The position numbers and the translations under genes are program-made. DNA of 64,000 nucleotides from Thalia democratica (taxonomy: Eukaryota): the NCBI GenBank assembly GCA_965202585.1, contig OZ241834.1:7564001-7628000 (forward strand), given 5' to 3'. Position 1 is the stretch's first letter. Each line of letters begins with the position of its first letter. This document shows positions 7,401-49,784 of this stretch, piece by piece. Below the pieces are notes generated by a model. That model was not told the DNA's origin. It did no database searches and worked only from the letters and a program-made list of their open reading frames with translations.

Positions 7401-10400
7401 TTAAACTTGCAATGACATTTTTTTAATGATACATATACTGTAAAGTTTAATAAAATATAAACAATTAAACACGTGAAAGGTAACATAACCATGCTTAACT
7501 CAACTAAGTGTGTAAAATGTATACTTAGCACTTTAGACAATTAATGCAACTAAAATCATTTATTTAAAACATCTACAGCAAAAGAACATAAAATATTTTC
7601 ATATAATTCATGAAAAACAGACAACAATTTCACAACTACCTGCTCTGACTTGACGGGCTGCACTTTCCTCGAGTGTTTCTCCTTTTTCTTCTGATAAATC
7701 CCGCCGCCAGACGGCATCAGCAGCTTCTTCTCGCTCCTCGAGTTCGAGCTCTTGCTTCTCGACTTCACCGAGCTCGAATCGTTACCCGCAGGCGGGGGTT
7801 TTATCTTCACCAGCGGGATGCTCTCCCCCTCCCTCTTGTCGGGTTTCAGCGACTCCCCCGACGGCAGCACGGCTTCGAACCCCAGCTTTTGTATCTCGGC
7901 TCCGACCTGCCTCACCGTCACCACGTCCGGGTCGTGCACGACGAACGCGCATTTCTCCACCAGCGACACCGTCACCTGCGAAATTAAATTGAGATTTTTA
8001 AGACGACCGTGAACCGACATGATGATGGTCAGAAACTTATTGGTAGTTTTTTTATTGAAACTTGGTAAATAAAAATTGTTTGGGTTGTTAAACGGAAGTA
8101 TTACTTTCAAGTTCAGTTTTACCTGCACGACGCCCGACCTCTCGCTCAGACTTCCTTCAATCTTCCTCACGCAAGAGTTGCACCGCATCCCGTTCACCAT
8201 GATCACGGACCTCTGCGAGTTCAGCGAAACTTCTGTGAACTGATTCGCGTCGCCGATTGGTTGTTTTTGTGGCGATACGACGCCGAACACTATCGAAGCT
8301 TCAAATCCGAGGTCTTCTATTGCGTCTTTGATCTGATCCAGCGATATCAGGTCCTTGTTGTACTCCACTTCGGCTTCTTTGTTCTCTAGGGAAACCTGAG
8401 TGGAATTTTCAGTGAGTTAAAATTAAAAATGGTTTTTTGAGAAAATATTTGGCGCGAGTAGTTTTTAAATAGTTAAATAGTTAGTAGGCTTTATTTGTTT
8501 AATGCTTCTAGTTTTACCAATTTTGTTTTAAAAATAGTAAAGCATCTTTGACATTTGCGTTAAAAGTATTGTTTTTATTTATTCACTGATGTAGTAAATT
8601 TTATATGATTAAAATACAACTAATTTGAACATGTAATAGTAATGTTTTCGTCTAATTTATCACAACGACTTTTATTTAAACTAAGTAATTTTGACTAACA
8701 AAATAAACTTCACACAAAGTTATGAACCATGTAGTTATAGAATTACATTTTTATAGTAAAGCTTCAATTAAAGGTAATTAAAAATATACTTGTTAAGGTA
8801 ATAAAGTGATCCACCTTGTTTAAAAGTTTTAATTATAACTTGTAGAGTTTATTCTTAGTTACCAAATACTTATACACAAATATAAAAACTAGGAGCAGTT
8901 TTCAAGCACTAAGAGATAAAAGATGAGATTTTAACTGAGTCATAATTGAAAATTAAACTAAAAAACGCAAAATAACATTAAAAAATTAAAAAAATATCGT
9001 TTTTGCACGTTATAAGAGATATTTTATAATTGTAAACAATTTATTTTAATCTCATTTAAAAATATTTTAACTGCAAGGTTGAAAAACAATTTTAAAAACA
9101 GTTAATTAGTTGTTAAGATATTGTAAGAGTATCGCTTAAACAACTTTTTACAGCTATGTATAGTCAAAGACATTAGATTCTATTTAATCTACAACAACAA
9201 AACTGATATATAACTTGAAATTTTTTAGCATTAATGCTAAGATGATATTAAAAGACATCAAGTAGATTAGCACATAGTAAAAATATTTATTTTTACTATC
9301 ATTTCTAAAATTCTATTTATTTTAAATGAGATAATTAAGAAAACATTATTGTTACTAAAATGATTAAAAACATAACGAACTACAATCAAAATAGTAAACT
9401 ATTTAGATGGTGTTCGGCTAAAAGAAGCCAAGTTTTTTATCAAAATAATAAATTTGAAACAGCTAATCCTGAAGTCATATTTATAAAGCAATTACAAACA
9501 ACCTACCAGGTAAGTATGTATATATACATATAAATAAAACTGCACAAAAATAAACTTCTCTTAGAACAACTGTTTTTGCCTTCAACACGTCAGCCAAGTG
9601 TTTTATTATATCAAAGGCAAACATCATAAGCACAGTAACAAAATTATAAAAATTAGTTATTACGCAATAATAGAATAATTAACTAGCGTATTTTGAACAA
9701 CATTAATAACACAGTTTTTATATAAGTTGTTTTCGGTAATGTAGACAACCAGTTTGCAATTCATTTCTTTTTTTTCGAGATTCTGATTTTTCAATGTTTA
9801 AAATTTGTATTTTATTTGCGTTGCATAATTAACATCCATTTTTTAAACTGTATTTGTTTGTTCTTGTTAATATTTCCCAGTAAATTTTAAACATTAGAAT
9901 ATATATATTAAAGGTTTTATACAAAGTTCTGATCGATAGTGCTCGACAAATCAAATTGGAGCTTAATATTTATTTAATTATATAAAAACTATAATTTAAA
10001 CAGCTGTTTCACACATTGAAATGTAAAATTTCATTCGATCGTCAGTAAGTTACAGTTTATTATAATAGTGAACAGAAATTTCAATTTTAGAATTTTTTTT
10101 TAGAATTTTTTATAAAAAATTGTTATAAAAATTGTTATAAAATACATAATTGTTATAAAAAATTCTAAAATCGAAATTTCTGTTCACTATTATAATAAAC
10201 TGTAACTTACTGACGATCACATGAAATTTTATATTTCAATGTGTGAAACAGCTGTTTAAATTATAGTTTTTATATAATTAAATAAATATTAGAATATATA
10301 TATATATACTAAGGCAGAAATATTAACCTAACCTTTAAAATATAAATATTCTTATAGTTGGCTTTACTATGTACCTAAACGTCATAACCTGTTTTAATTA

Positions 10401-13400
10401 TTTTTGAAAACTATATTTAGCTTTTTTTATGAGTTTTATTTGCTTAGTCGCTTTATCAATGCAGTATCAATCAAAAAACTTTTTAAATCATTGTAAAAAA
10501 GTTAAGCAAATAAACTACAAAATTAAACTTTTATAAAAGTTGTGCATGAGTTACGTAATAAAATCACAATTGCATAAAAAATAAAACATTAAAAGAAGTA
10601 AAAGACAACACTAACCCTTAAGTAATAAAAATGAAAGGTTTCACAATAAATCATGTTTACTTAGGTCAATGTTTTATCAGTGAGAGATAAAAAAAGCAAC
10701 ACTATATTAAACAAAGGAATGCAGCTTAAATGAATCTGCAGCCTTTAACTTTTCTTCAAATAACAATTACGTATGGTTTACATTTTTAGTTTAAAACAGT
10801 CTTGCAGATAGCTTTAGATAACTAAAAATAGTTAATAAATACAAACCAAAAAAAAATAATGAAATTGAAGCACTGTAGAGTTTTGTTGCACAAAAACAAC
10901 ACCAACCTTTATACTCTGCACTCCGGTGTAGCAGCCGATTTGCGACTCGATGGTCTGCACGCACGAACCGCAGGTCATCCCCTCGATCGAAACTTTTCCG
11001 TTCGAAGTTCGCTTCTTCACGCCTTCGGTGCACACTTCAGCGTCGAAACCCAGATCTTCGATGGCTTCAACGATGGCGTCGACTTGCAGAACTTCAGGGT
11101 AGAAATCGACCACCCCCTGCTTGTTTTGCAGATGAACCTGGAAATTTGTTTTTTGTTGAGGAGTTTTTATTAATATTATATAAATATAAATAAAATTAAC
11201 AACTTTAATTGGCCATACTTGAATTAAAATGTTTTAACAATACAAAGCTTTGAAAGAATTATTGTTGGTTCATATTCTAATTGACAGACTGTTTTAAGCT
11301 TTAATAAGTAATTAGTGCAATAAAAATTATTTTACATGCTTTATAGTAATAATCTCACTGATGTGTAAAAACGTTTAAGTTATTAACATGAACTCAAAAC
11401 CTTAAAAGTTTAAGTATTCACTTTGTTTTTCATCATCATCAGAATTTAAAAAATAATAATAATAACAAATAAACTAACCACAATAGAGATGATTCCAGGC
11501 ACTTTAGCCACATTTGATTGGATGGTTTGTACACAGGCATCGCATGTCATTCCATCAATGTTAACTACTATTTGTTCACCTGTTAAGCAACCACAATTAA
11601 CTTCAAATCATTTTGTATTGATAATTTTTTTGTATATGTTTACATCAAGAAATTGTTTTAATTATATTTTCACAAATTTAATAAATTTAGTGTAAATTTT
11701 TTTTAAATTATTTTGTAGATAAAATTTTATGCAAGATAATCTGTTTTCATTATCAAATTTTAGTACAGATTGAGCTAGTTTTCGGAACCAACATATACCC
11801 TTGTCTAAAAACAACTAAAATACTCAATAAATGTTTAAAACAACATATTAAGAGTAAAACTATTTACTTAATTAAAAAGTTAACACTAAATGAAATTTTT
11901 AAACACATAATAATAAATAAAGGTAAACTAAATAATATTTAATTGTTACTCTCGATCTGTTATCAGGAATAATCTTATTATTCAAACTAGACTTTTTCTT
12001 AAAATTTATTTAAGATCTAGATACTTTTTACAGTTACCAAGACTTTAACTAATTTTCGAATTATAAAGATACTAAAGCTGCAGAGTTTGAAAGGTTTCTC
12101 ATAAACAGCTTAAACTGTTATATAAATAAAAAAGACTTCATTAGAAGTACGCTTACACATAAGTTGTTACACAACGTCATTCATACTTATATAATTTACT
12201 TTCTACTAACTTAAAAACCTTTTTGTAAACATAAAATAAAAAAGCGTTGTTTTTTTTATTGCTCTCTTAAAACTTATGTTTTTTTAATAACAAACAGTAT
12301 TCGACTGTTTATAATAAATCACTTATTCCACAAGTTTAAGAGATCTAGTAGAAAAAATATTTTCGGAAAGTTTAAAATAATAAAATTAGTAAAATGATTA
12401 AAGTACTCTTTTTTAGAAAACTATTTACAAATTTAATTATAATTAAAAAAGTGTTTTATGCTCAGTAGTAGTAGATTAAACTCATAAAACAAGCTCTCAT
12501 ATGACACCATAAATCGTTTTTAAAAAGAAAATTTAACTCAAAGTTACATTTTATAATTTTAGAATAAAAATTGTATAGTTTATACATTTTAAACGCTTTT
12601 AGTTATTAATAAATTGATTTTTTAATACAAATAAAAGGTTCAATATCCTTAAAGTATATCAAAAACAATAAAAACTCGATAAAAAGTTGCTAACAGGGTT
12701 GCTGAATTTTTTTGTAAATTTCTTCCAAGTTTTCTTAATTTCTTCCAGTTTTTTCAAAAACAATTTTTTGGCGTAGTTTTAGTATAAAATTAAACTTAAG
12801 GTAAAAAAAAAAACTATCTTAAACAGTATAACAACATTAAAAATATTCTGTAAACATACTTTAAATATGTTTTTTAATGAAAAATTATTTTATGATACAA
12901 TTTTATTTAATCTATATGATAGATACTTTGTATCAAAAAGAAATTTCATTGATTTACATGTAGGAGTAGTTGAAAAGAAAGCTCCAAGTTTTTCTAGGAT
13001 TTTTATTGAGTTTGTTGGAATTTCCAAGTTTTTCCTGATTTTTTTACAAAAAATTACAAATTTCAGGTTTTTCAAAATTTGTTTTGCCTAAATTGTCAAA
13101 ATCTAGATTTTTCAGGTTATTCCAGGATTACAGGTTTTTTTTTGCAACCATGTGCTAAGTTTATTTTTAAATATCAAAAGAAAAACTTTTTTTATATAAT
13201 CTTTTTTTCAAGTTTCAAACATGGAACTGTGCTTAAAACAAACTTTCAAAATTATTTGCATCAAAACCAGCGTCTTCAATTGCTTCAACAATACTTTCCA
13301 CATTTGTAACAGACTTGTCGTAATAAACTTGACCGTTTTCTTTGCTCAGATTAACCTGTAGTAATAAGAAGTACTTTTAAGCTTTTTATTATACTAAAAG

Positions 13401-16964: not shown

Positions 16965-19900
16965 GGGGAGGGTAAGTACTAATGTATTTTAACAAAATTA
17001 AAAATGTACAATATATATTTTTAATAAATACTCAAAAACTAATGATTGATACTTCAAAAATTCTTAATAAATTTCAAATATATAAAATTATCAACTCTAA
17101 AGACTCAATACATTTAAAGTTTGAATGCTTTATAGATAAAATCAAAGAGATAAGTGATAAAAATATTCCTATGAAAAAACTTTCAAAATCTCAATTAAAA
17201 CTCAAGTCAAAACCCTGGATTACAAAAGGTATTCATAAATCTATTAGGCATAAAAACAACCTTTACAAAATACTATGCAGAAGTAACTTTAGTAACAAGC
17301 ACCAAGTAAAAGAATATAAAGTTTACAGAAACAAGTTAACAAAAATTAAAACAATTTCGAAAAAAAAGTATTTTGAAATTAGACTTCAAAGCTGTAATAA
17401 AGATTCAGCAGAGACTTGGAAGGTAATTAATAATATCACAAAAAAACAAAAAAAAAAAACATATTTTTCCTCATAAACTTGAAATAAATGAAAAATCTTT
17501 TGTTAATTCAGATGAAATTGTAAATAACTTGAACCTTCATTTTGCCAATATTGGAAAACAAACTTATTTAAAACAGGAAATTCATCCAAAGTGTTCTATT
17601 AATAGCCCAAAAAACCACTATAACAGTTTTGTCTGGTTTGATGTACATGAAAATGAAATAATAAGTATTATAAAAAGTTTAAGTTCAGATAAAGCTAGTG
17701 GTGTAGATAATATTTCAATTAAAATCTTAAAAAAAATAAATTATCATATAGCTCCAGTTATTAGTGAACTAACCAATCAAGCATTTCATGAAGGTAATTA
17801 CCCAAATTGTTTAAAATTAGCTAAAGTTATACCTATATTTAAATCAGGTTCAAAAACACTTCCAGGAAACTATCGACCGATTTCACTTTTATCAAATATT
17901 AACAAAATTATAGAAAAAGCCATATATAGTCGCTTATACAAGTTTTTTACAAAGTTCAATATCTTAAATTCTTCTCAGTTTGGCTTTAGGGAGGGACACT
18001 CTACTACCTTAGCTCTTTCAGAGTTTGTGGAAAGTACATTGTCCTCCTTTGATAAGGGAAATGCAGTTTGTGCTGTTTTATTAGATTTGAGCAAGGCATT
18101 TGACTGTGTGGATAGAAAGATTTTGTTAGACAAATTAGAATATATTGGAATAAATGGAAAAATGCATAATTTAATAAAATCATATTTAACAGAAAGAAAG
18201 CAATTTGTTAATTTTGGAGGGCATGAATCAGATTGGGAGGGTGTAGAAGTAGGAGTGCCACAGGGTTCTGTTTTAGGACCATTACTTTTTTTGGTATATA
18301 TAAATGATCTTCAAAACAACACCAGTCTAAATGTGCTAAATTTTGCAGACGATACATTATTATATACCACATTTAAAAAAGACAATTACAAAACAGACAC
18401 TGCATACCTTAATTCAGAACTAGATAATGTATCAAAATGGTTAAAGGATAATAGGCTTAAACTAAATACTGATAAAACAAGGTACATGCTATTTCACTCT
18501 GGTAAAACAAAAGTTTTGAAAAACACAAGTTTACAAATAAAAATAGGTAATACATCCATATTAAAGGTAGAAAATTATAAGTATCTTGGTTTTACAATAG
18601 ATAGTAACCTCAATTGGTCTGACCATATTGAAGCAGTAAAAACAAAGCTATTGAAAACAATAGGTATTTTATACAAAACAAGGTACTTTTTAAATCAAAA
18701 ATCCTTATACTACATCTTTAATTCTCTTCTAATGAGTCATGTAAGATATGGTTTGTTGTGTTGGGGTAGGGCAAGTAAAACTAAAATTAATGAAATTGAT
18801 AAACTCATTAATAGAGCATTAAGATGCATTCATTCCAAAGGTTGGAATGAAAGTGTTAAAAGTATAAAAATAGATAAGAAAATATTAGATGTTAAAAACA
18901 TGTTTAAGTATGAGGTAGGAGTTTTTATGCACAAATTTAAAAAAGATACTTTACCAGTTAACTTTAAGCCTTACTTTACAAACGTTAATAAAATGCATAA
19001 TCATCTAACAAGATTTGCCGAAACAAACTATTTTTTTCCCAGAGTAAATAGTCTCTTTGGTCTTAAAACATTATCCTACCTTGGTTCTAAACTATGGGAA
19101 GAATTGCCTAGAAACTTGGTAGATCAGAGCTATCTTGGAGCATTTCAATATGGAATGAGAGAAAACTTACTTAAAAGACAATCAGAAAAATATCAAGCTT
19201 AATCTTTACCAACAGTTGAACTTATATCTTAGTATTGGTGTTTGTCTTAATCTTTTTTTTTTTTTGGGCTGATTGCTGTTGGTCTTATAAACTGGGTGAA
19301 GGTAGAGCTGGATTGGTATAGGTTGGTTTTATTATTTTTATCTTTTTATTTATTATATATACTATTTTAATTTGTTTCTTGTACATAAAATTTGATAGTA
19401 TTGTTTTGTCCTCATTGACAGAGTGATTTAACGAGTAGATGTATTATTTTACTTTTATAACTCTATTTTGTAGTTTTTTGTTTACTATATATTAATTGTC
19501 AATTTGTTTCAGAAGATTGAGATTTTAAATTTAGAAGTAAAAACTTCATATTTTTTAGACATTCTGGTTATTTAATTTTATTTGTTAAAAATTAGTTTTA
19601 GGTTTACAAACAGTTTATTTAACTCAATTAAATACTTTTATTATTACTTTATTATTTTGTTTTTAAATTTAGCTGTTTATTGTTAGAAGTGATTTTATTT
19701 TAAGTAGTTTAAACAAATTCTATCAATTATTAGTGCTAGATTTTATTGTTTAAAACTGAATTGTTTACAAATCTATAAAACAGTTAGACCAAGTTTTTTT
19801 TTTTTTTTTTTTGTTTGCTCTATTTTTATTTACCTACAAACACATATACTAGAAATTTAAAGACACTTTTTTAAAATACATGGCGCTCTTTCAGTTTTAT

Positions 19901-36999: not shown

Positions 37000-39100
37000 A
37001 TTTACTGTATTATCTGTATAAATATAAAAGTATGTAGATCTGGTTTATAATTTAATTTTAAGGCTGTAGTAGTAAACCTTTTAATCTTAATTTGAGTACT
37101 GTACAAAGATTGTAGAAAATACATTGCACTCTTTCATATTTTTTAGATGTTAGCATTCTACAGCAGGCAATCGTCAACAATTTTTTTAATTCCTCTTTAA
37201 TTTTGTTGTATGTACACCAACGTTTAAACGAATGCATCATATGACATCCGCATAGATGAATTGTACTACGTATCATGTTGTCAAACAATTTTTATGCTAT
37301 TTTTCTGAAATAAAGTTTAGAAATTAGAGTTAGTATTACAATTTATTACAACTTTATTATTCTATTGAATAAAAGAATTTATTGAAAAATTAACTAACGT
37401 TCGCTGGTAAATCCAGCGTATACCATTTGTAAATAGGTTATAAGATCAGTACTATTGAATTCTTCTGTTGCTGCATTAATGTTGGGAAACTGCAATCTGA
37501 CTCCAATCTTTTGAACAGTTCACCTAAAGTATTGAATATTTTATATATCTTTATTTTATACTACTCACGAAATAATGTTTATTTATATTACCTCCTATAA
37601 CTTTTTTGTATTCCCTTGCTATATGAGACATCCATGCCTTGTAGTTTTACTTGTCTGTGTGGGCAGATATCATATCGCTAACTACAAGGCAAGGTGTGTT
37701 TCTCAAACTCAGCTTCTTTCCTTTTGACTTATGAAATCCTTTAAATAAAAAAAAACTTGAAACTAAAGTTATTAGATTAACTTATTTCTAACAAATCCAT
37801 CAACTACATAAATTGTATGGCTAAATAATACAATTATTTTAATAAATTTTAGAAAATTATGAAACAATCTGATCTTATCAACTATTTCTAAAGTTAGAAC
37901 AAATACCGCTATCACTACGACCAATTTTAGTTCTTCTATTTTTTGGCGTTATGACAATTTGGTTCTCCAGTTCTTTTCAACTCAATCTTATCTGTATTCA
38001 TTGTACCTGTCCAACTAACGTTACACTCTTCGACCGTGCAGCTTAAGTTTAGCCAGAAAGACTTAGTTTTCACCAAAAATTTGTATTTTCAACTTTTAGG
38101 TATATGGCATTGCTTTTTTTTGCCGTGTATTTTTTTGCGTATGACCTGTATTAAAAATAAGTTAATAAAGTCAAATGAGTTAACATCTAATACATCAATT
38201 ATAGTTTTTAAGTGTGATTAATAAAAAGTGAAAATAAACCACTTACATCTGTGCAACCTATCTCAGACATTTTGAATTTTTTTTTACTTTCTAAATACTT
38301 GTTATTTTCATTATAAACTAGCTTCCATTCTTCTGCAGTAACTGGTAAAGATATCTGATTCTCTTTTTCATCTGCATTAACTGGTGAGTATTCGTGAGTA
38401 GACTAAAAGCTGTATCCAGCCTTTATTTTTGTTATTAAAAATGATACATAAATAAAACCAATAAAAAACATATTTTTATGTTTATCGAACATGGTAATGA
38501 TTCAAGTCTCAAACTACTATAGTTGATAGATTCAAATACTATAACAAAAAATTGATTTCTACAATACAACCAGCTATGATTTATCCAATTCATATTTTAT
38601 CAGTGTAATTTAAAATATAAACATGCTTTATAGAAACATTATAAAGTACGATAAAATTGTTTGCATCCTCATTATTGCTGTGTAGTTGGTCATTTTTGCT
38701 AGCAATGTATGCCTTTACCAGGTCTTCATCATCTGATTTAATACCATCTCCTGACAAAGTTAGTTTTTCTTATCTTTAACACTGTTGCATCCAGCCTGGA
38801 GATTTTAATCAGTTAGATGGAGACTTTTTTTTTGTATTTGTAAGTTGATCAGATTATAAAGGGGTCCAAAATGTAGATTTTTTTAGCGTTTAAATACTGA
38901 AAAAAAAAGTTCATTACATTTAAAAACTGTTTATTAATATTTGTACAAATCTATTTTTACTTACAAACAGTCTCCAGTGTTTGTCTTTTAGTTGAAAAAA
39001 TGACAATATTGTTTCATGCATGTTTCATGAGTTTTTCTGAGATCTAATGAATGTTTTTAGTTTAAGATTTACATTTTTACTTTACTATTAATAGTTTTTT
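37000..39100 (-). mobile_element. Decayed MULE transposase of NOF-FB-like type
   Basis: PCLVVSDMISAH, ESDCSFP/INAATEEFNSTDLITYLQMVY and IHLCGCHMMHSF..IFYNLCTVL segments occur in the order recalled for NOF-like MULE transposases; boundaries approximate. Confidence 0.5.
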
Positions 39101-39529
39101 ACCTCAGTTATAATTTAAGTTAATTTTTATCACAAGGAAGATCTAAAAATATATTTTAGAGTATAATCTTGTAACCGTAGAATAAAATATGGGCGATGAA
39201 ATGACAACGATGTTCGAAAAGAATATGTACAGGACCAACCCGAATGCGGACATGTCCGAGAAAAAAGTAAACCGAAAAATATGAATGAACAAAAATAAGG
39301 CAAAAATACGAAACTTTTTTAAGGAATGTCTAGATTTTTATTTAGTTTTCAGTTTTTAAATTTTTATTCGAGTCATTAACTATCTCTTTTTAATTTTTTA
39401 ATAAAGAAAAGAATACGGCGAAACAAGGCGTTAGAAAAATATGAAAACAGTAAAAACAACAGAAAGAAGAATTGAAAAAATGAACAGGGAATCAAAAGCA
39501 TCCAGGAAAATAAATACATCCATGCATAA

Positions 39530-41230
39530 TTAGGAGGACATGCGGTACCTAAACTCGATCTTATCAATCACCTTAGTGAATAGATGACGTTTCGGAGTGG
39601 GCATATGAAGCATCATCTTCTGATGCTTTCGCTTCCTGGAACGGTTTTCCATTACGAAATCATAGGCAGCCAGTGCATAACACAATTCGCCTACAGCCCT
39701 ATAAGGGAGAAAGATTTCATAATCCTTTAACAACCATTCAATTATCATTAAATTAATCTTTTTCTTCCGCCTGAAATCTAGGATCATCTGACCCTTATGC
39801 CACTCCTCCCTCAACATATCGAGTTCATTATTACAATCTGACCTCCCCAAACGCCTCAAGAACTCCTTCTTCTTTAGCAGAAGGCGGTCGTCCTCAGTGC
39901 ACCTCACCCCATCTCCAGCACCTGCTGACTTAAAGTCCGTAGTCTGCTTAACCTTCCAATTCTCTCTATCTAATATGATCCTTTTCCCATTATGACTAAT
40001 TACTGAAGAAGCTGAATCTAATAATCTACCAGTCATTAACAATCCACCACTCTTATCTGGTAGCATGTCAAAGCCCAGCCACTCACCCATCAATAGCATC
40101 TCTGCAGCCAAAGAGGCCAAGGTTTGATCTTCTTGAATACTTATGACGTCGTGAGGAACCACCTTCTTGTCCAATCTCGAGCCGTGACTCAAGTCCTGAA
40201 CTAGAAACCTACCCATATCAGATTCAACTACATAGTCAAGATAGCCCTCATGAATCAAACTGACGGAATTATCAACTAAAACCGTTACTAAACCATTCCT
40301 TCTGTCCGTATTCTTTGCAATAATAGGCAATTTGACGACATCTCCTTTGATAGCGCTAACCTTGTGAAGACTACCTCGATCTAATGCATTCGCCCTAAAC
40401 TGTAAAACCTTCAAATCATCACCCCTCAGATTACAGTCTAATAGATCACATAACCTTCGCTGATTGATTTTTGTCTTATTCCTATTTTTCGCCCTGCGTA
40501 CGCCAACCACATTGTGTGATCCATTAATTTCAATCCATTCTGACCTTTGACCATAACCAACCCCCCCAAAACTACACTTGAACTCGACAAAGTCATCGTT
40601 ACGCTTAGAGTCCCATAAGCAAAAAAGATTGCTGGTAACTATCTTCGCTCGAGAGGTATTGTAATTTGGGGCAAGAGTGACTCTATTCTTAAAAATAGCC
40701 ACTACAATTCCAGGTCTAATCCTCCCCTGGTTACTTAGATCCAGATCAGTCAGAGTGAACGTCCATGCGAATGTCCTGTCTTCTGATGAAACAATCAAAT
40801 TATTATCGACCCTTCCTCTTACTAGAAAAACGCCAAAATGATTCCCAACGATGTTACATAGATACAGATTCGATTTGCGCTCTTCTTGGTCAATAATAAA
40901 CTGGTTTAACCTCCCTACTCTCCAGTCATCAGCGGTCATCATGCAACCTAATGACAGTCCATAATATTGCTTTAGGTCCCACCATCTATCATTAATCAAA
41001 TCGTACCAGCCGTGACTGCTCATAGAATAAAAAGGCTTCGAAAAGACTTCAACGTCCTCCTCCGAATCGACTGACTTAATCATCACGCTCAAATGGTTGT
41101 ACAACGCTTCCTTGGTAACCTCGATTCCTACATCAAGAAATTCGACGTTCATGAGATTAGCTTTGTTCATCCCAATTTTGATCGATCCAATTTTGAGACC
41201 TTCTCTGTCCAATTCAGACATCTCCGTCAA
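39530..41230 (-). CDS. Intronless ORF of unrecognised family (566 codons from TTG; first ATG at 41221); paralogue of 44893-46512; possible endogenous viral element
   Basis: 1.7-kb stop-free frame in DNA clearly more GC-rich than its flanks; roughly 70% identity (estimated by eye) to the second ORF; no family motif recognised. Confidence 0.8.
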   Translation of the reverse strand: MTEMSELDREGLKIGSIKIGMNKANLMNVEFLDVGIEVTKEALYNHLSVMIKSVDSEEDVEVFSKPFYSMSSHGWYDLINDRWWDLKQYYGLSLGCMMTADDWRVGRLNQFIIDQEERKSNLYLCNIVGNHFGVFLVRGRVDNNLIVSSEDRTFAWTFTLTDLDLSNQGRIRPGIVVAIFKNRVTLAPNYNTSRAKIVTSNLFCLWDSKRNDDFVEFKCSFGGVGYGQRSEWIEINGSHNVVGVRRAKNRNKTKINQRRLCDLLDCNLRGDDLKVLQFRANALDRGSLHKVSAIKGDVVKLPIIAKNTDRRNGLVTVLVDNSVSLIHEGYLDYVVESDMGRFLVQDLSHGSRLDKKVVPHDVISIQEDQTLASLAAEMLLMGEWLGFDMLPDKSGGLLMTGRLLDSASSVISHNGKRIILDRENWKVKQTTDFKSAGAGDGVRCTEDDRLLLKKKEFLRRLGRSDCNNELDMLREEWHKGQMILDFRRKKKINLMIIEWLLKDYEIFLPYRAVGELCYALAAYDFVMENRSRKRKHQKMMLHMPTPKRHLFTKVIDKIEFRYRMSS

Positions 41231-41499
41231 TTCTCAATTCCAAGAAAGAGAATATAAATGAGCGATCAGGTTCCTGATTACTGAAGAGTTCTGAATTGGT
41301 GCTGGACCAGTGATGCTAATATTCCTCATTTCGAATTTACAGCTGAGTACTACTTAAAACCTTACTCTTTAAGGATTAACCACTGTTATGTCTTTTTAAT
41401 CAGTTATTACTTTAAATTTATTGAAGTCATTGAAGTCAGCAGATACTGATGGCTCAGTATCTGCATGACCCGTTAACTGATTATAAGATATCTGCATGA

Positions 41500-43000
41500 T
41501 ACTATTTATAAGCTAACAAAAGTTAGCTTATATAGCTTTTACCTTGACGTTACGCTTGAATGCATTTCTACAATAAATTCTGCAAGACTTAAACTTTTTT
41601 TTCTATAATTATTGTCGTACGTATCTGACAAAATTTCGTTTTTTATTACCCTCATCCAGTTTTTGCAGATGCGTTTGTGGCCCTTAGTTTTTTGCACCCC
41701 TTCAATCCTCGACCATTCCAAAAAGGAGCTAAACCCATATAGTATGATATAAGGTACTTTGGTAGCTTAGGTGTATAAAAAATATTTGCACTTCCTGTTC
41801 CTTGTGGTAGTTTCTCACATTTTTGGAAAATACTTGAAGTACAAACGATTTTAATTTATCTTTTGTACAAACTTAAAGATACACTTACAAATTTTTTTTT
41901 CCCATAGACTGAGTGCTTAAAACTTTCATCAGAAGCATAGCTATCTTCAGCATCCTTGGCCTGAATAATATCACCTTAATTTTTAAGGATGTCTTTGGCT
42001 TTTCCATCTTGAAAAGCTATTGATTTTAAATAAATTTCTGCTCTAGTTGAGTGGTCGCTAGATTTTTCACACAAGCAGAGTGCGCACAAATTGTGAAAGG
42101 TTACTATTATTTGGTCTAAATCATCACAGTTGAACCAAAAATTTCTTTTTAAAAAGTACGTTATGTAACTAGCTTTTAAAACTTACCATTGAAGCAAACA
42201 CATGACCGTGAAACCTTTTAGCAGTCTTGTTATTAGTAGCTTTGTTGATATGGTTCGTCACTGCTTTCATGATGTTTTAAAATCAAATAGGTATGATAGT
42301 TTTTTTTTATTGTTCACTTCCTTCTTGTTATACCTATTTATTTACGTTTTAAATTGATACACGATATGTAATACATTTCATACTTACCTTGTGATGTAGC
42401 TGTGCAAGGTTTCATTATTAAATACACTCGAAATAGTGTGTAAAAATGGATAAAAAAAAATTTACTCAGATTTTCCATATAGGAACTCTACTGAACTTTT
42501 TAAACCGATAATACCAGTTTAACAGAAATGCTTGCACATCAATTGTTTTCTGTGAATTTAAATCATTTCTGCGACTGAAAGAGTAGGCTCACCTCTGCCA
42601 TGACCACCAAGTACAATGCATAATAAAAAATATTACCTGTGATGTTTAAGCTTGTTTTGTTTAACTCAACGCTTTGAATTCTAAAACTATAACTACTCTA
42701 GTAACTTAGTTGTTTTGGAAAACTTGTATATTTAAAACTTCAATCGTTACCAAACAATTTTGATAATTTGTTATTAAATCAAGTTTAACTTGGAACTTCA
42801 GCTGGTTTTTTGATCACACTCCCTGTTGCGTCAAAAAAGAGGCTTGTTTTTAACTGAATTGCTAATGGTTCCAAACCTATTGTATACAATTAAAATAATA
42901 ATTGCATTTATAGAAAAATTTACAATCTCGTACTTTCTCGGTACACATGTACACAGCAAACTTGTATTTATTTAGCTTTTCGAACACTTTCCTTTTAAAT
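41500..43000 (-). mobile_element. Second decayed NOF-FB-like MULE transposase
   Basis: LFFDATGSVIKKP (~42800-42845) followed by IMKAV and further fragments; many stops and frameshifts. Confidence 0.55.
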
Positions 43001-44029
43001 GAGTAATTTCGTTTGTACGAAAGAAAGTTATTTTGTAAAGATCATTTTTTAAAAGCTTTTAGTAAACAATTTTTATTTTGCAAAACAACCTATTTATTAA
43101 ATAAGATCATATTATCAGTTGTGAAAACAAAAGCTGTCAATAAAGTTTTACTTCTTACTAACATGGAACTTACTATGTAGCGTATACTTCAAATAACTTT
43201 GAATATCATATGTATAAATTACATATATACTTCTTAACACACTCACTTTTTTTAACTTTCAACATTAACTTCATGTAGCGTTAAACATGCCATCAAAGTT
43301 ATCTTAAACATTTTGTTTTGCCCTGGTTGTCTTGGTATAACATTAAAAAAAAATTCCACTTAAATTGGTTATGCCGTTTGTACAAAAGGAAGTTATTAGT
43401 TGTTACAAAACCTTATCGTTTTTAGTGAAAAATCTTAACTAAACAGCATCTTTTGCTTTACAACCTAAACTTTTTAACTAACTAAAGTTTATATTTATGT
43501 TTTACTTCTTACTAACCTGGAATTTTACATTTAGCATCTTCTCTAAAGAAACGCACTGTTTTTTTGTTAAGAATTAAGAATTTTGCATCAATTGTTTGCA
43601 AACAAAAGGTCACTGTGGTTGTTTAATTTTTTTATGAATGAATTTCTTCAAAAGTGTACAGAATCCCTCTTCAAATGTACTGGATTCTAAATTATATAAC
43701 TTGTTACAGTCGTAATATCAAAATCATAAGTAAGATTTTGTGGTACATAGATTTTGGTACTCACCTATCTTTAATTCAAAAATATTTGTCTTATCTTATT
43801 TTATTTTTTCATCAGTTTCCAGAATAAATTTTTTTTTTTTTTTTCTGCCAAGTGTTTCTAGCACTAGCAGTACTTAAATTTATTCTAAGAAAAGTTTTGA
43901 CTGTACAGTCATTGACATGGAGCAGCTAATCAACTAAACAAATTTAAAACCTTTCAGCTTACACTATTTAAGTTGATTTTAATGACTGTAAAAGGCTTTA
44001 ATTTTTACCAGGTCAAAATATTGTTGAAA

Positions 44030-44850
44030 CTTCTTAATATTTAAATTTCTTTTCACTTTGACTTTTACAACAAATTGGATTTTTAACTACATTTTTTAAT
44101 GTTGAAGATCTATTCAATTCATTTGAAGTTGCTATACTAACCGTCTTTGGCTGATTTTTGATATGTTGTCTTACACTTTTTGGAATGTGCTCTTTAATTC
44201 TGGTTTCAAGGTGTGTAGATGTATTACCAATATAACTGTTTGAGCAATAGCATTCAAACGCGTAAACCACGCAACCTTAATGTTTGTTGGGTATAAGGTT
44301 TAGGACTTAAAACAGAACTAGTTGAAAAAATAACTTAAGTTTAGCAGCATGATAAACTTTTTCCGTCAATTTCTCGATGTTTCTTTCAATCTTAGTCGAT
44401 TTTCACCTGCATAAGGCAAAATGAAAATAACTGGACATTTCTCAGGACCATAAGGTTTTATGTAGTTTAATTTCTTTATTTCAGTTTTAGAAACTTTATC
44501 AATCAAAAAATTAGGATAGCATTTCTTTTATAATATTAAGTTCAATCTTAAAAACTTCTGGAAAACAAATTATAATAGCTCTGTGAAATAAGGGTTTAGT
44601 TTAACCTATTTTTCATCTCTTGCTACAATAAGATTGAAAATTTAGATGTTGACCTGGGAACGAAGGATTTCTGGATACTTATGTGATAATTTTATCATCT
44701 TTTCTTTCAATTGAAACATCCAAAAAAGGTATTTGATTATTTTCCTAAGTTTCTTTGGTGAACATAATAGCACTATGTAGGTAATTTAATTTCTCGAATA
44801 ATAAAGAACTAACTGTTTCACTATCACTAATGATAAAAGTTAGTTCCTTA
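44030..44850 (-). mobile_element. Penelope-like retroelement fragment, 5'-truncated with fold-back
   Basis: FEKLNYLHSAIMFTKET*ENNQIPFLDVSIE (RT), GYPNFLID, LPYAG and VYAFECYCSNSYIGNTSTHLETRIKEH (GIY-YIG); inverted duplication 44766-44886. Confidence 0.85.
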
Positions 44851-44892
44851 GTATTCGAAAGATTAAATTCCCTACATAGTGCTATTGTAATG

Positions 44893-46512
44893 TTAGGCTA
44901 TTTTTCTTTTATGTTTTAATTTCCTACAATTATTATCCATAACGAAATCGTAAGCAGCTAAGGCGTAACACAAATCACCTGCAGTCTTATAATTGATAAA
45001 GATGTCATAATCTTTTAGCAAACAATCAATCATCATCAGATTGATTCTCTTTTTTCGTCTGAAGTTTAGAATTAATTGACCCTTATGCCACTCGTCCTCT
45101 AACATGGCAAGTTCGCCATCACAATCCGATCTGTCCAAGTGCCTTAAAAACTCTTTCTTCTTAAGTAAAAGACGATCCTCATCAGTCCACCTCCTACTGT
45201 CCCCCGCGCCCGCGAGCCCCAGGTCTGTAGTTCGCTTAACTTTCCAGTTGACTTTATCTAATATAATTCTTCTTCCGTTATGGTTAATCACCGAAGAAGC
45301 GGAATCCAGCAACTTGCCAGTTACTAGCATGCCACCTTCCTTATCCGGCAATATATCAAAACCTAGCCACTCACCCATCAATAACATCTCTGCGGCCAGC
45401 GAAGCTACACTCTGATCATCTTGAATGTGTATGACAGTAGGGGGAAGGACCTTCTCATCTAACCTTGAACCATGACTTAAATCCTGAACTATAAATCTAC
45501 GATTGTCTGACTCGACTACATAATCGAGGTAACCCTCATAAATCAGACTGACAGAATTGTCGACCAAAACTGTTACCAACCCATTCCTCCTATCAGTGTG
45601 TTTTGCAATGATAGGCAACTTAACAACATCTCCCTTTATGGCGCTGACCTTATGTAAACTTCCCCGATCTAATGTGTTGGCCTTAAACTGTAGTACTTTC
45701 ACATCTTCGCCCCTCAAATTGCAATCCAACAAATCGCACAATCTTCGCTGATTAACCTTTATTTTACTTATGTTCTTCACACTACGTATGTCAACCAAGC
45801 TACGCGAAGCGTCAATCTCAATCCACTCAGATCTCTGACCGTAACCTATTCCACCAAAACTACGCTTAAAGTTAACAAAATTGTCGTTGCGCTTATTGTC
45901 CCACAAACAGAAGAGGCTATTAGTAACTATGTCTGCTCGAGAAGCATTATAGTTAGGAGCTAATGTAACTTCATTTCTAAATATTGCCACTACAATCCCA
46001 GGTCTAACCCTTCCTTTATTATTCAGATCCAAATTTCTTAGAGTGAACCTAACGGCGAATGACCTATCCTCAGACGAAACTATTAGATCATCATCAACCA
46101 ACCCTCTAACGAGAAATATGCCAGAACGATCTCCAATAGTATTGCATAGGTAAAGATTCGAGTGACGCTCTTTCTGGTCATTAATGAACTGTTTTAATCT
46201 ATTCATCTTCCAATCATTCGTCTCTAACAACCGACCCAATGATAGCCCGTAATAGTGTTTTGAGTCCCACCACCGACTTTTGATTAGATCATACCAACTA
46301 TGACTTCTTACGGAGTAAAAAGGCTTAGAAAAGACCTCCACATCCTTATCTGAATTGATCGACTTCAACGTAGTATTTAAATGAGGAACAGGTACTGCCT
46401 CAGAGTCACTTCTAATAGTTGCATGGCTCTGGCCAGTACCCTTCTCTTGACTACGAGTACAGTGTCTCTTACTCATATTCAAGTACATATAAGAAGTAAA
46501 TAATATATACAA
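44893..46512 (-). CDS. Intronless ORF of unrecognised family (539 aa); paralogue of 39530-41230; possible endogenous viral element
   Basis: 1.6-kb stop-free frame, colinear with the first ORF from HL..KS..S..DVEVFSKPFYS to CYALAAYDFVM; N-termini unrelated. Confidence 0.8.
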   Translation of the reverse strand: MYILFTSYMYLNMSKRHCTRSQEKGTGQSHATIRSDSEAVPVPHLNTTLKSINSDKDVEVFSKPFYSVRSHSWYDLIKSRWWDSKHYYGLSLGRLLETNDWKMNRLKQFINDQKERHSNLYLCNTIGDRSGIFLVRGLVDDDLIVSSEDRSFAVRFTLRNLDLNNKGRVRPGIVVAIFRNEVTLAPNYNASRADIVTNSLFCLWDNKRNDNFVNFKRSFGGIGYGQRSEWIEIDASRSLVDIRSVKNISKIKVNQRRLCDLLDCNLRGEDVKVLQFKANTLDRGSLHKVSAIKGDVVKLPIIAKHTDRRNGLVTVLVDNSVSLIYEGYLDYVVESDNRRFIVQDLSHGSRLDEKVLPPTVIHIQDDQSVASLAAEMLLMGEWLGFDILPDKEGGMLVTGKLLDSASSVINHNGRRIILDKVNWKVKRTTDLGLAGAGDSRRWTDEDRLLLKKKEFLRHLDRSDCDGELAMLEDEWHKGQLILNFRRKKRINLMMIDCLLKDYDIFINYKTAGDLCYALAAYDFVMDNNCRKLKHKRKIA

Positions 46513-46632
46513 ATATCAATTAAATATAAAATATGAATATCAATATGTGACGAATATGAATACAAGAATATCAATAAGAACAGAAATATAAATATCAATA
46601 TTTTAAATAGAACTTAATTTTATTTAATAACT

Positions 46633-46802
46633 ACAGAAACTTTAACCTTAAATGTCACTAAAAATCAATAATAGATTATACACAACTATAAAACTACTAA
46701 ATGGCCCAACTTTTATAAATATAGAAAACTTAAACCTTAATTATCACTAAAATAGTACTGAAAATCACTAATAAAATATATACAACAATAAAACTACTAA
46801 AT
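46633..46802. repeat. Degenerate tandem duplication upstream of the second unknown ORF
   Basis: agaaact(t)aaccttaa.t.tcactaaaa ... acaac.ataaaactactaaat occurs twice. Confidence 0.6.
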
Positions 46803-48767
46803 TTATTATCAAACAAAATAACTATGAGGTTGCAAATAATAAAATGATGAAATGTAAGCAGAAAATAAATAAGGACTAACAGTTGCTTTATTTACTAAAA
46901 ATTCTTTCTTGCAGAGAAAACTAAAAAAACTTAACTTTGGCAACACACTCTCCCAAAATCTCCAAAACTCCAACTGAAGACATGTTTTAGCGTTCCTAGA
47001 GTTTTTATGACTATTTTGGCCTTTTAAGAAAAATAGCCTAACATTACACTATCATACTCTTCAACATATTTTTGATTAGTGTTTCTGCAATTTTGTATAA
47101 AATGTTTATTTGATATAAACAAAGATTTTTTAAAAACAAAAATAAAATATAAGTTTAAGTTTAATTATTATATTCTTTTCTTCTCGTTTTCTTGAAACTT
47201 TTTTATCAATAATTTTAAGACACAAACTTCATAGTAGCTGAAATATTAAAAAAAGTATTTCTTAAAAAAAATTGGTAGGGAGTATAAAATCTAAATTTAG
47301 ATTTTCAGAAGTCAAAAATTAAAGAAATTCGCTCAAGAAGTTTTTTTTCTTTTTAAGTGAGTGTTTATTAAAAATTACAATCAGTAGTATTATTGTTTCA
47401 ATATTAATTTAAAAATGTATAGTTATAAATAGTATCTTTTCTAAAAGTAAATAATAATACTTACATTTTACAACAACAAAGTTAATAAGTTTTATTTATT
47501 TATCCAAGTCTTATTTATTTTAATTAAAAGAATTCTCACTCTGTTTTACAGTTGTTAAACTTAATAATTTATAAAGTTTTTGTTCATATCTGCATTTAAG
47601 CATTCAACTAAACTTAAACAGTTTTTGTTTATTTACATTCTCTGTTAAGCAATTTTTTTCATTTAAAATTACATTGTACCTTGTTAGTACGCTACTTGTT
47701 GAATAAAGCTTGCTATTCATTCTGTAATTATTAACGTATAAATTTCAATTATAAACATTTGTTAGGTTTGAAGTTGATATAAACAATGAAAATTTGTGCG
47801 ATAATTACAATGCTTGCGTGTGGGAATATTCTTTGTTAAGGTGAGAAATTGTTATTAATTCTAAAAAAATATAATCTATTATTTAAGTTTAGCACAAAAT
47901 ATACAAGTATTGTTTCAACCATTGAAAAATATATTAGGAAAGTAGTTAATTTATAACAAGTTCATGTATTCTTTTAGTTGTACTCAAAACTGAATAATAA
48001 TTAATTTAATTAAATCTGTAACTATATTAAAAAAAAAAAAACTTCCAATAAAAGTCTTAAACAAGATTAAGTTGCCTTATGAGATATGTTTAAAAAAATT
48101 AACCCATGATACTACAACTATTACTAAAAGATTTGAAATCATTATATATAGAGATTTCAAACATATTTTTTATTGTTTTTAGGTAAAAACATTAAAAAAA
48201 AATCTACATAATTGAATATATACAACCATTTATTATTAGTGAAATTAATTTTTCAAACATAAAATAATTAAGTGTTTATTATATTAGTTAAAATTAATTA
48301 AACTTATGAAACAAATTGTTAATTAAAGTATGTCGATTTGCTTACGACTATACTTTATTTTAGTTAAATAGCATTTTTAAATATTCTTTTCTAAATCATA
48401 TCGCTCTTGTTATTGGAGAATAAACTTTTAGGTTTTTGAAATACTAGTTGAGAGTATAAAGATTAAATATGTTATTTTTAGTTAATTGCTAGCAGACATT
48501 TCAGAATTTTTGAACTCGCACATGTATATTCAATAAACAATACACAATGTTATATAAAATGAGGTTATGAGCTGATAAAAATCTTGCAACTAAGCTTGCT
48601 AGTTTTAAAGTTTACAAGTCATAACAAATAAGTAAGATAAAAAAGACGTTTCAGATTAAAATTGATTTTTATAAAAAGTATACTCAAGTTACAATGATAA
48701 TGATAATATATTAAGGTTGTTTTAACAATAAATTTTTAAAGAGCTTCACAATTAAGGAGCCTTTATA

Positions 48768-49359
48768 CAATTATGACAAAAGTTAAATTGTTAAAAAGTT
48801 TATTACTTAACAATTGTTTCACGCTAGTGCGATGATCACAAGTAAAAGTAAACAAACTAATAAGTTGCAACGGACAAACATTTTATATAGTTTTAGATAA
48901 GTAATTAGTTGATTAGGTGATTAGTTAACTAATTGAATTTTAGTAATAATCAGCAAGATAAATTATAATTAACGTAAATACAATCATAACAAAAATCAAA
49001 CGATAAAAACAAAACTATATAATGAAAACAAAGGTAGATTAAACTTAAATCTAGCATTAAAGTCTTAATTTGCTAGATTTAAGTTTAATCTACCTTTGTT
49101 TTCATTATATAGTTTTGTTTTTATCGTTTGATTTTTGTTATGATTGTATTTACGTTAATTATAATTTATCTTGCTGATTATTACTAAAATTCAATTAGTT
49201 AACTAATCACCTAATCAACTAATTACTTATCTAAAACTATATAAAATGTTTGTCCGTTGCAACTTATTAGTTTGTTTACTTTTACTTGTGATCATCGCAC
49301 TAGCGTGAAACAATTGTTAAGTAATAAACTTTTTAACAATTTAACTTTTGTCATAATTG
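48768..49359. repeat. 592-bp palindrome (two 289-bp arms, 14-nt loop)
   Basis: 48768-49056 is the reverse complement of 49071-49359; no mismatch found on reading. Confidence 0.95.
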
Positions 49360-49784
49360 GATAATGATAATAAACTTAACTAACCTTAAAAAGAACTACC
49401 AGTTATCCTTTATTACTTATTACCAGAATTCTTGATTTGTACAAACTATGTAATTAGATAGACAGCTACAAGAACTTAATTAATTCAATTTATTTCAACA
49501 GATAACTGTATTGAAATCAGCGAGTGAAGGAGCGTGTTTAGTTCTAGCCGTTGATAAAGCAGAAAAACCTAGGTTCGGTTGAACAACAAGCAACAATCTG
49601 GCAGAAGTATGAGAAGACTACTGTATCTAATAACGTTGCTATGCTGCGGAAATAGCGTTGATGTGTGTTTTTGTGATTATAGTGATATTGTTTTCTATTT
49701 CGATGTTTAATAAATAGTTATAAGTTTCTTTACTGCTTCAAATTACGGTTTACATGCGTAAAATTTTGAAAGTATACTTTAGAT

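Follow-up and report, generated by a model that had tools for sequence, protein, structure and literature searches.

Orphan reading frames in Thalia democratica as probable captures from an undescribed RNA virus, one of them in a likely gypsy-virus chimera

We analyzed a 64,000-nucleotide stretch of DNA from Thalia democratica (assembly GCA_965202585.1, contig OZ241834.1, positions 7,564,001 to 7,628,000; hereafter the window), which belongs to a chromosome-scale contig (C10) of an 802-Mb animal genome. Two intronless open reading frames (ORFs) on its minus strand, ORF1 (567 aa from stop to stop) and ORF2 (540 aa), lie 3,659 bp apart. With a probability of roughly 0.8, both are non-retroviral endogenous viral elements (EVEs), likely recent germ-line copies of one gene, each taken from its own strain or species of an RNA virus not yet described. 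ORF2 is part of a likely retrotransposon-virus chimera, which a host Ty3/gypsy element probably assembled and integrated, and the donor virus was, on balance, reovirus-like. Just five frames of at least 150 aa occur in the 64 kb, ORF1 and ORF2 among them, so that their lengths cannot be attributed to chance. A preliminary description, made from the letters alone, had reported two same-strand frames about 3.7 kb apart with about 70% protein identity, a set of conserved blocks and no recognizable family. Strand, spacing and identity (70% overall) agreed with our measurements, every quoted block was found in the ORFs, and neither ORF had a Pfam match.

The argument starts from the anatomy of ORF2 (Table 1). 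The start of ORF2 lies in multi-copy repeat DNA; other copies reach 99% identity and occur in same-strand pairs 7.3 kb apart. The donor element is a Ty3/gypsy retrotransposon with 695-bp TG...CA long terminal repeats (LTRs), a primer-binding site (PBS), a polypurine tract and the order protease, reverse transcriptase, RNase H, integrase. In two copies on contig C5 (L046 and L047) the LTR pairs are 100% identical and gag and pol are open over 520 and 1,314 codons; the gag frame opens within the LTR, about 45 codons ahead of the PBS. Residues 1–35 of ORF2 are identical to this gag start and are followed in frame by the foreign coding part. At the opposite end the insertion closes with the reverse complement of the first 23 nt of the LTR, which shares four bases with the foreign sequence and truncates the C-terminus about 26 residues short of related copies on C5. 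The chimera thus has two LTR-type ends, and it is flanked by CTAT repeats that likely represent a target-site duplication; 4-bp duplications were present in five of five fetched gypsy copies with both ends visible (a sixth stretch missed one end). The LTR part differs by 7–10 substitutions in 664 nt (1.1–1.5%) from three family copies, two of which have long open gag and pol frames, and this count is an upper bound on the age of the insertion. The earlier statements that both frames are intact and that all neighbouring transposable elements (TEs) are decayed therefore had to be given up: the LTR abutting ORF2 is young, ORF2 starts with gag residues and is cut at its C-terminus, and ORF1 has an in-frame stop upstream. 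The unrelated N-termini and differing C-termini noted at the time are real, but they are products of the junctions. A further gypsy copy of the same LTR family (L051, C8:46,220,001-46,230,000) adjoins frames that we take from their sequence to be histone H3- and H1-like.

A second capture was found on C5. Searching the genome by tblastn gave six matches, namely ORF1, ORF2 and four 3′ fragments on C5 that are 98% identical to ORF2 in DNA; the assembly contained no parent gene. The C5 fragments retain the C-terminal residues missing from ORF2 and carry a unique U-rich tail of 197 nt. There is an abrupt join between this tail and the last 900 bp at the 3′ end of a young 5′-cut long interspersed nuclear element (LINE) of like orientation; the LINE is 96–98% identical to 37 of 37 other copies among the matches listed. 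Poly(A) is absent from both 3′ junctions, that of the ORF1 block and that of the C5 copies. We infer that the C5 join, which has the form expected of it, arose by LINE template switching on RNA of the ORF2 strain. As the window ORF2 lacks the 3′ end present on C5, the C5 copies were not derived from it, nor was ORF2 derived from C5. Two classes of retroelement thus copied the RNA and no parent gene exists in the assembly, which makes exogenous RNA the most likely template. Of the six codons that vary among the four C5 copies, one differs silently and five by replacement; one replacement is a stop, present in two copies. Also on C5, the interval 15,190,001-15,280,000 (L007-L015) is a cluster in which viral fragments, without exception on the minus strand, stand amid duplicated TE pieces. 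It includes the four ORF2-like 3′ fragments, picorna-like RNA-dependent RNA polymerase (RdRp) pieces (15199191-15200202, about 4 kb from one C5 copy), a VP3-like frame of 260 aa (15239046-15239825) and a 303-aa orphan (15241966-15242874), and it looks like a trap of the PIWI-interacting RNA (piRNA) cluster type.

The divergence between the two ORFs also speaks to their origin. Over 493 core codons the proteins are 73% identical, and identity at codon positions 1, 2 and 3 is 82, 88 and 46%, in line with the extensive third-position differences described before. Four-fold sites are 33% identical. The proportion of synonymous differences (pS 0.82, against pN 0.14 for nonsynonymous ones) is saturated, so that the synonymous distance dS cannot be estimated. 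ORF2 entered the genome recently and yet is synonymous-saturated relative to ORF1; the pair therefore did not arise by duplication within the genome. The ratio of nonsynonymous to synonymous change (dN/dS) is low, as the earlier proposal of purifying selection implied, but a reading as host selection is not supported, the divergence being older than the insertion; the constraint likely acted in the donor viruses. Likewise, the ORFs are richer in GC (40–42%) than their flanks (27%), as stated earlier, but host ATP7 exons in the window are richer still (GC 55%; GC at third positions, GC3, 73%), and high GC by itself is no sign of foreign origin. It is the codon pattern, not GC, that marks the ORFs as foreign: relative synonymous codon usage correlated with the host sample (1,695 nt, ATP7 exons only) at r = –0.09 and –0.22, as compared to 0.68 between ORF1 and ORF2. 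The ORFs showed a G-over-C skew of 0.28 and a CpG ratio of 0.81–0.93, compared with CpG ratios of 0.52–0.60 in the negative-strand L fragments of the same genome. Of the two origins that the preliminary description had offered, independent integration from two related RNA viruses draws support from the junctions with retroelements, from codon use foreign to the host, from synonymous sites that are saturated next to an LTR diverged by about 1%, and from the many other RNA-virus fragments in the genome. An old duplicated gene, still functional under host purifying selection, is at odds with an ORF2 insertion far younger than the ORF1/ORF2 split, with the damage at the ends of both frames, and with C5 copies that gather mostly replacement changes and a stop.

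The block that holds ORF1 (about 39170-41413) is single-copy, is bordered by host repeats and contains a candidate whole viral segment. Its frame continues upstream beyond the in-frame stop, and the database fragment P0010, from another assembly, reads open across the site of that stop. The first and last four bases of the candidate segment (GTAA...TTAC) are inverted complements, and an 11-mer of the ORF1 end recurs at the edge of the viral fragment L075, there on the coding strand. We regard these end motifs as suggestive only. A stable fold was looked for in the 359-nt tail and was not found (z +1.0). The flanking host repeat is cut where the block begins, and its continuation was not found within the window. 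We also weighed whether ORF1 lies within another TGT...ACA element bounded by an ATCT duplication, and dismissed the signal as chance.

Several features suggested a reovirus-like donor, a view toward which we lean. Reovirus mRNA is not known to carry poly(A). Segments 5 and 6 of the crab reovirus CsRV1 comprise 2,153 and 2,020 nt; their ORFs (607 and 539 aa) have no known function, their 3′ tails run to some 300 and 345 nt, and their 5′ ends read AUAAAUU (PMC4748042, Tables 1-2). The ORF1 block is similar in shape (2,170 nt, 599 codons, an 11-nt leader and a 359-nt tail), its 5′-GUAAAUU end agrees with that of CsRV1 at six of seven bases, and the isoelectric point of ORF1 is 8.96 as compared to 9.03 for crab reovirus VP6. 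However, no sequence similarity between crab reovirus segments 5/6 and ORF1 or ORF2 was detected, although VP5 and VP6 were not compared directly, and the 3′ ends differ (...CUACGGUUAC against ...AUCAACGAU). Complementarity of the first and last two or three bases is known from orbivirus segments (outlined in PMC3901712). Furthermore, the 260-aa frame of the C5 cluster matched VP3 of PDB 7XR2 (E 7e-6), which forms the inner capsid of a relative of CsRV1, mud crab reovirus (PMC9207676).

Other fragments in the genome belong to this context. Mononegavirales-type L fragments occur at C7:31,964,600-31,968,300 (L032, L033) as two overlapping copies, open over 718 and 370 codons, directly after a Penelope-like element. 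A long rhabdovirus-like L-gene copy with several frame breaks (L030, L034, L035; C1:23,095,391-23,100,500) reaches the methyltransferase region. A second orphan family, which had no Pfam or PDB match, gave 21 genome matches, including L071 and L075 (C5), L072 and L073 (C8) and L074 (C10). It comprises at least three lineages with 61–66% amino acid identity and third positions 41–46% identical, and its G/C skew (0.28–0.38) resembles that of ORF1 and ORF2. In one copy a U-rich tail joins a LINE end, and another overlaps an upstream GC-rich frame of 133 aa. The family may represent a further gene from the virus group of ORF1 and ORF2.

Capture by the same route from a different kind of RNA virus is conceivable, if distinctly less probable than a reovirus-like source. 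The protein would then be the C-terminal part of a segmented negative-strand L protein, a PB2-like protein, or the product of a 3′ gene of a positive-strand virus. A U-rich tail without poly(A) also suits bunyavirus-type mRNA, and the bunyavirus end motif AGTAGT lies 25 nt ahead of the upstream ATG of ORF1. The proximity of the picorna-like RdRp pieces to a C5 copy points the same way, and the upstream frame overlapped by L073 of the second orphan family suggests a polycistronic RNA. On the other hand, the picorna-like pieces have a skew of 0.01–0.04. The families Bunya_RdRp and Flu_PB1 had no match in the genome (with the controls silent), and the ORFs matched neither solved viral L or PB2 chains nor the L fragments of the genome itself. 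The CpG ratio of the ORFs is also unlike that of negative-strand viruses, which are reported to be strongly depleted, Bunyavirales most of all; the difference between double-stranded RNA and negative-strand viruses runs in the direction seen here (both as outlined in PMC10714974).

A number of observations weigh against a viral, and in particular a reoviral, origin by the proposed route. Scans of Pfam, PHROGs, PDB, phage records, ESM Atlas, IMG/VR and JGI returned no named homologue. As there is no similarity to any named viral protein, the term virus rests on anatomy and context; divergent viral proteins can evade all homology searches used. Reovirus RdRp was not found in the genome with PF05788, PF07925 and PF02123, for which the controls were silent too; the RdRp families PF04196, PF00602 and PF00978 were not found either. 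The VP3-like piece has a skew of 0.05 versus 0.28 for the ORFs and thus need not come from the same virus. Neither a target duplication nor the end of a retroelement turned up around ORF1. Chance would place GTAA no more than 40 nt from the ATG with p ~0.26 and TTAC at the end with p ~0.02, and the shared 11-mer occurs once more (L012), away from any recognized fragment. At ORF2, the five bases preceding the LTR start, GATAG, are identical to the end of the gypsy polypurine tract, so that the CTAT direct repeat could be a coincidence (p ~0.01); the flanks, however, match the interrupted Penelope-type repeat across the site for a few bases, which favours a true duplication. Finally, if indels are counted, ORF2 would remain open at 1–1.5% divergence with p = 0.11–0.19, which leaves room for selection.

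This last point bears on the question of whether the host uses one or both copies as protein genes, with ORF2 expressed from the LTR promoter as a fusion of gag residues 1–35 to the viral part. We consider this unlikely. The fusion is in frame and open over 531 codons, and most of the LTR is kept, including the gag ATG. Moreover, comparison of ORF2 with the C5 copies assigned three silent and two replacement changes to their shared lineage, a silent share above neutral drift but too few changes to test. However, an in-frame join has a one-in-three chance anyway, and the insertion is young: at 0.5–1.5% divergence the frame is expected to stay open with a probability of 0.73–0.40 without indels and 0.44–0.11 with them. 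The openness of ORF2 thus calls for no selection, although it is compatible with it. In addition, ORF2 is cut at both ends, ORF1 has its upstream stop, codon use is not host-like, and the fragments of related proteins in databases are short, with unrelated sequence adjoining them.

Those fragments came from broad protein searches. A word search of 5.8 billion proteins gave no match at near and longer lengths and three fragments at a shorter length. A hidden Markov model search of 1.84 billion representatives recovered eight fragments of 45–186 aa on ENA contigs below 1.5 kb. The database fragments, with identities of 40–73%, show further lineages of the orphan protein. P0014, a member of one cluster, was dropped since it reads as a fumarase, and PDB sequence matches to PI3K, riboflavin synthase and Lon (E 0.1–0.5) were put down to chance. 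Structure prediction for the whole protein reached a pLDDT (predicted local distance difference test) of 28, and its Foldseek result was meaningless. The model of the N-terminal half of ORF1 (pLDDT 44) contained a single confident domain (residues ~85–185, pLDDT 60–82), a barrel matching mainly oligonucleotide/oligosaccharide-binding (OB) folds such as SSB and Teb1, at best with Z 4.6, a root-mean-square deviation of 3.2 and 73 aligned residues. None of 48,161 chains reached Z ≥5 against this model. Foldseek, proposed earlier as a check, returned nothing for the domain at E 0.001 in PDB or BFVD, and viral polymerase, capsid and cap-binding domains were not among the structural matches listed.

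The predicted barrel leads to a further alternative, in which the source of the RNA was a DNA virus or a cellular organism, parasite or symbiont, and the encoded product a nucleic-acid-binding protein with several OB folds. We rate this as slightly less credible still than host use. Retroelements copy any mRNA, and the sole folding part of the ORF1 model does align mainly to OB-fold proteins. Yet values of Z below 5 reflect the common barrel only, and a total of eight short fragments among 1.84 billion proteins is unlikely for a cellular family. The lack of poly(A) at both 3′ junctions argues in the same direction, and several lineages with saturated third positions suit fast RNA-virus evolution. 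An assembly artefact or contamination is very improbable: the ORFs are joined base by base to host repeat families in a chromosome-scale contig, near-identical copies exist on a second chromosome, three of 11 listed sequencing runs (two studies, one maybe the source) contain 75–79% of the words of the stretch, and the C5-type protein is present in independent ENA contigs. Four runs with small shares were left aside, and the runs listed as containing the stretch included no RNA. One marine metagenome run contains a third of the words.

We thus return to the capture of an undescribed RNA virus and propose the following course of events. During infection, the gypsy reverse transcriptase would have copied most of an LTR and switched to viral RNA or its cDNA. 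After about 1.5 kb of viral sequence, a second switch would have followed, guided by 4 nt of microhomology, to the sequence complementary to the LTR tip; the product would then have had two integrase-ready TG...CA ends. Integrase could then have inserted the chimera in the germ line with a 4-bp duplication. For the C5 copies, a LINE would have switched templates on RNA from the ORF2 strain, with local duplication afterwards, and ORF1 would represent a nearly whole segment from another strain or species. The host copies most likely yield no useful protein. Any role left to them may be that of a template for antiviral small RNAs. In Aedes, which offers the analogy, viral fragments and gypsy elements share one-strand piRNA clusters (as outlined in PMC5497376 and bioRxiv 10.1101/127498). 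A bolder proposal, which we regard as improbable, is that a captured gene, taken from a reovirus lineage not yet described, became a ready-made transcription unit of the host through gypsy: a single integrase-catalysed step, with one LTR tip serving both ends, would have supplied a promoter and an in-frame gag start. Under this proposal the fusion would be expressed and would counter the virus, which still circulates, and ORF1 would be an almost whole segment of a sister virus.

Table 1. Positions of the features in the window, with other window features in the last three lines
Feature	Position	Strand	Remarks
ORF1, orphan protein, likely viral	39530..41233	-	567 codons stop-to-stop; 563 aa from ATG at 41221
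ORF1 upstream in-frame extension	41234..41329	-	ATG 41329, 31 codons, stop 41234-41236; 599 codons total
Candidate whole viral segment, 2,170 nt	39171..41340	-	GTAAATT 11 nt before ATG; ends ...CTACGGTTAC
U-rich 3′ tail, 359 nt, no poly(A)	39171..39529	-	single-copy except for one 38-nt match
Host flank repeat, multi-copy	38809..39169	.	~82% identical to other copies; cut where ORF1 block begins
ORF2, stop-to-stop frame	44893..46515	-	540 aa
Chimeric insertion holding ORF2, 2,163 bp	44886..47048	-	ends TGT...ACA
Ty3/gypsy LTR part, nt 1-665 of 695-bp LTR	46385..47048	-	last 104 nt give gag ATG and ORF2 residues 1-35 in frame
ORF2 foreign coding part, ~491 codons (~1.48 kb)	44905..46384	-	73% identical to ORF1
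Inverted 23-nt LTR-tip copy	44886..44908	+	gives ORF2 stop; 4-nt overlap (microhomology) with foreign sequence
CTAT, left 4-bp direct repeat	44882..44885	+	likely target-site duplication
CTAT, right 4-bp direct repeat	47049..47052	+	
Host flank, decayed multi-copy Penelope-like element	43915..44885	-	GIY-YIG frame 44034-44276; fold-back palindrome 44766-44886
ATP7-type copper ATPase gene	1,958-11,233	-	intron-rich; exon GC3 73% against intron GC 22-30%, very strong codon bias
LINE endonuclease/reverse transcriptase region	16,976-19,202	+	591-codon open frame
Perfect 294-bp inverted repeat, 14-nt spacer	48,763-49,364		probably a young miniature inverted-repeat transposable element or fold-back element

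The capture of RNA-virus sequence by gypsy elements has so far been argued mostly from proximity and from hybrids in cell culture. At the ORF2 locus a product of the germ line can be read at both of its junctions, together with the microhomology and a probable target-site duplication, and a LINE took up that viral gene a second time within the same genome. The copies also mark a viral lineage that homology-based EVE screens do not see, an orphan protein of 600 aa with at least two lineages, or several if the database fragments are included, and ORF1 and ORF2 provide bait for finding the donor virus. A caution follows for other loci: low dN/dS between endogenous viral copies does not amount to domestication if their sources were different viruses.

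Retroelement-flanked viral copies are known in insects (outlined in PMC12810003). A search of open-access titles and abstract openings gave no paper describing an anatomy like that of ORF2, although a printed case may exist. The nearest parallels, each as far as the cited reports describe them in outline, are the EVEs of Aedes, a hybrid of lymphocytic choriomeningitis virus (LCMV) with an intracisternal A-particle (IAP) element in mouse cells, and a reovirus copy in Aedes aegypti. Aedes genomes contain virus fragments oriented as gypsy elements and one-strand clusters of viral and TE pieces, and template switching was proposed as the route of entry (PMC5497376; bioRxiv 10.1101/127498). There, the link consists of gypsy enrichment within 5–10 kb, whereas both junctions of ORF2 are resolved to the base, its ends come from one LTR tip, its viral part is fused in frame to gag, and its donor has no named relative. 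In the LCMV-IAP case the enzymes of an LTR retrotransposon likewise make and integrate hybrid cDNA of a non-retroviral RNA virus (PMC3205384); that event is somatic and experimental, with no endogenous copy known, while ORF2 is a natural germ-line insertion in an invertebrate. The EVE from segment 5 of Liao ning virus in Aedes aegypti resembles our ORFs in that one reovirus segment was copied recently and almost intact, but it shares 98% identity with a known virus, and how it integrated is given as unclear (PMC2987831). ORF1 and ORF2 have no known virus as their source, represent two lineages and leave the route visible for one. What differs here from these systems is hence the combination of an orphan donor lineage with a germ-line insertion that has both ends from one LTR tip and an in-frame gag start.

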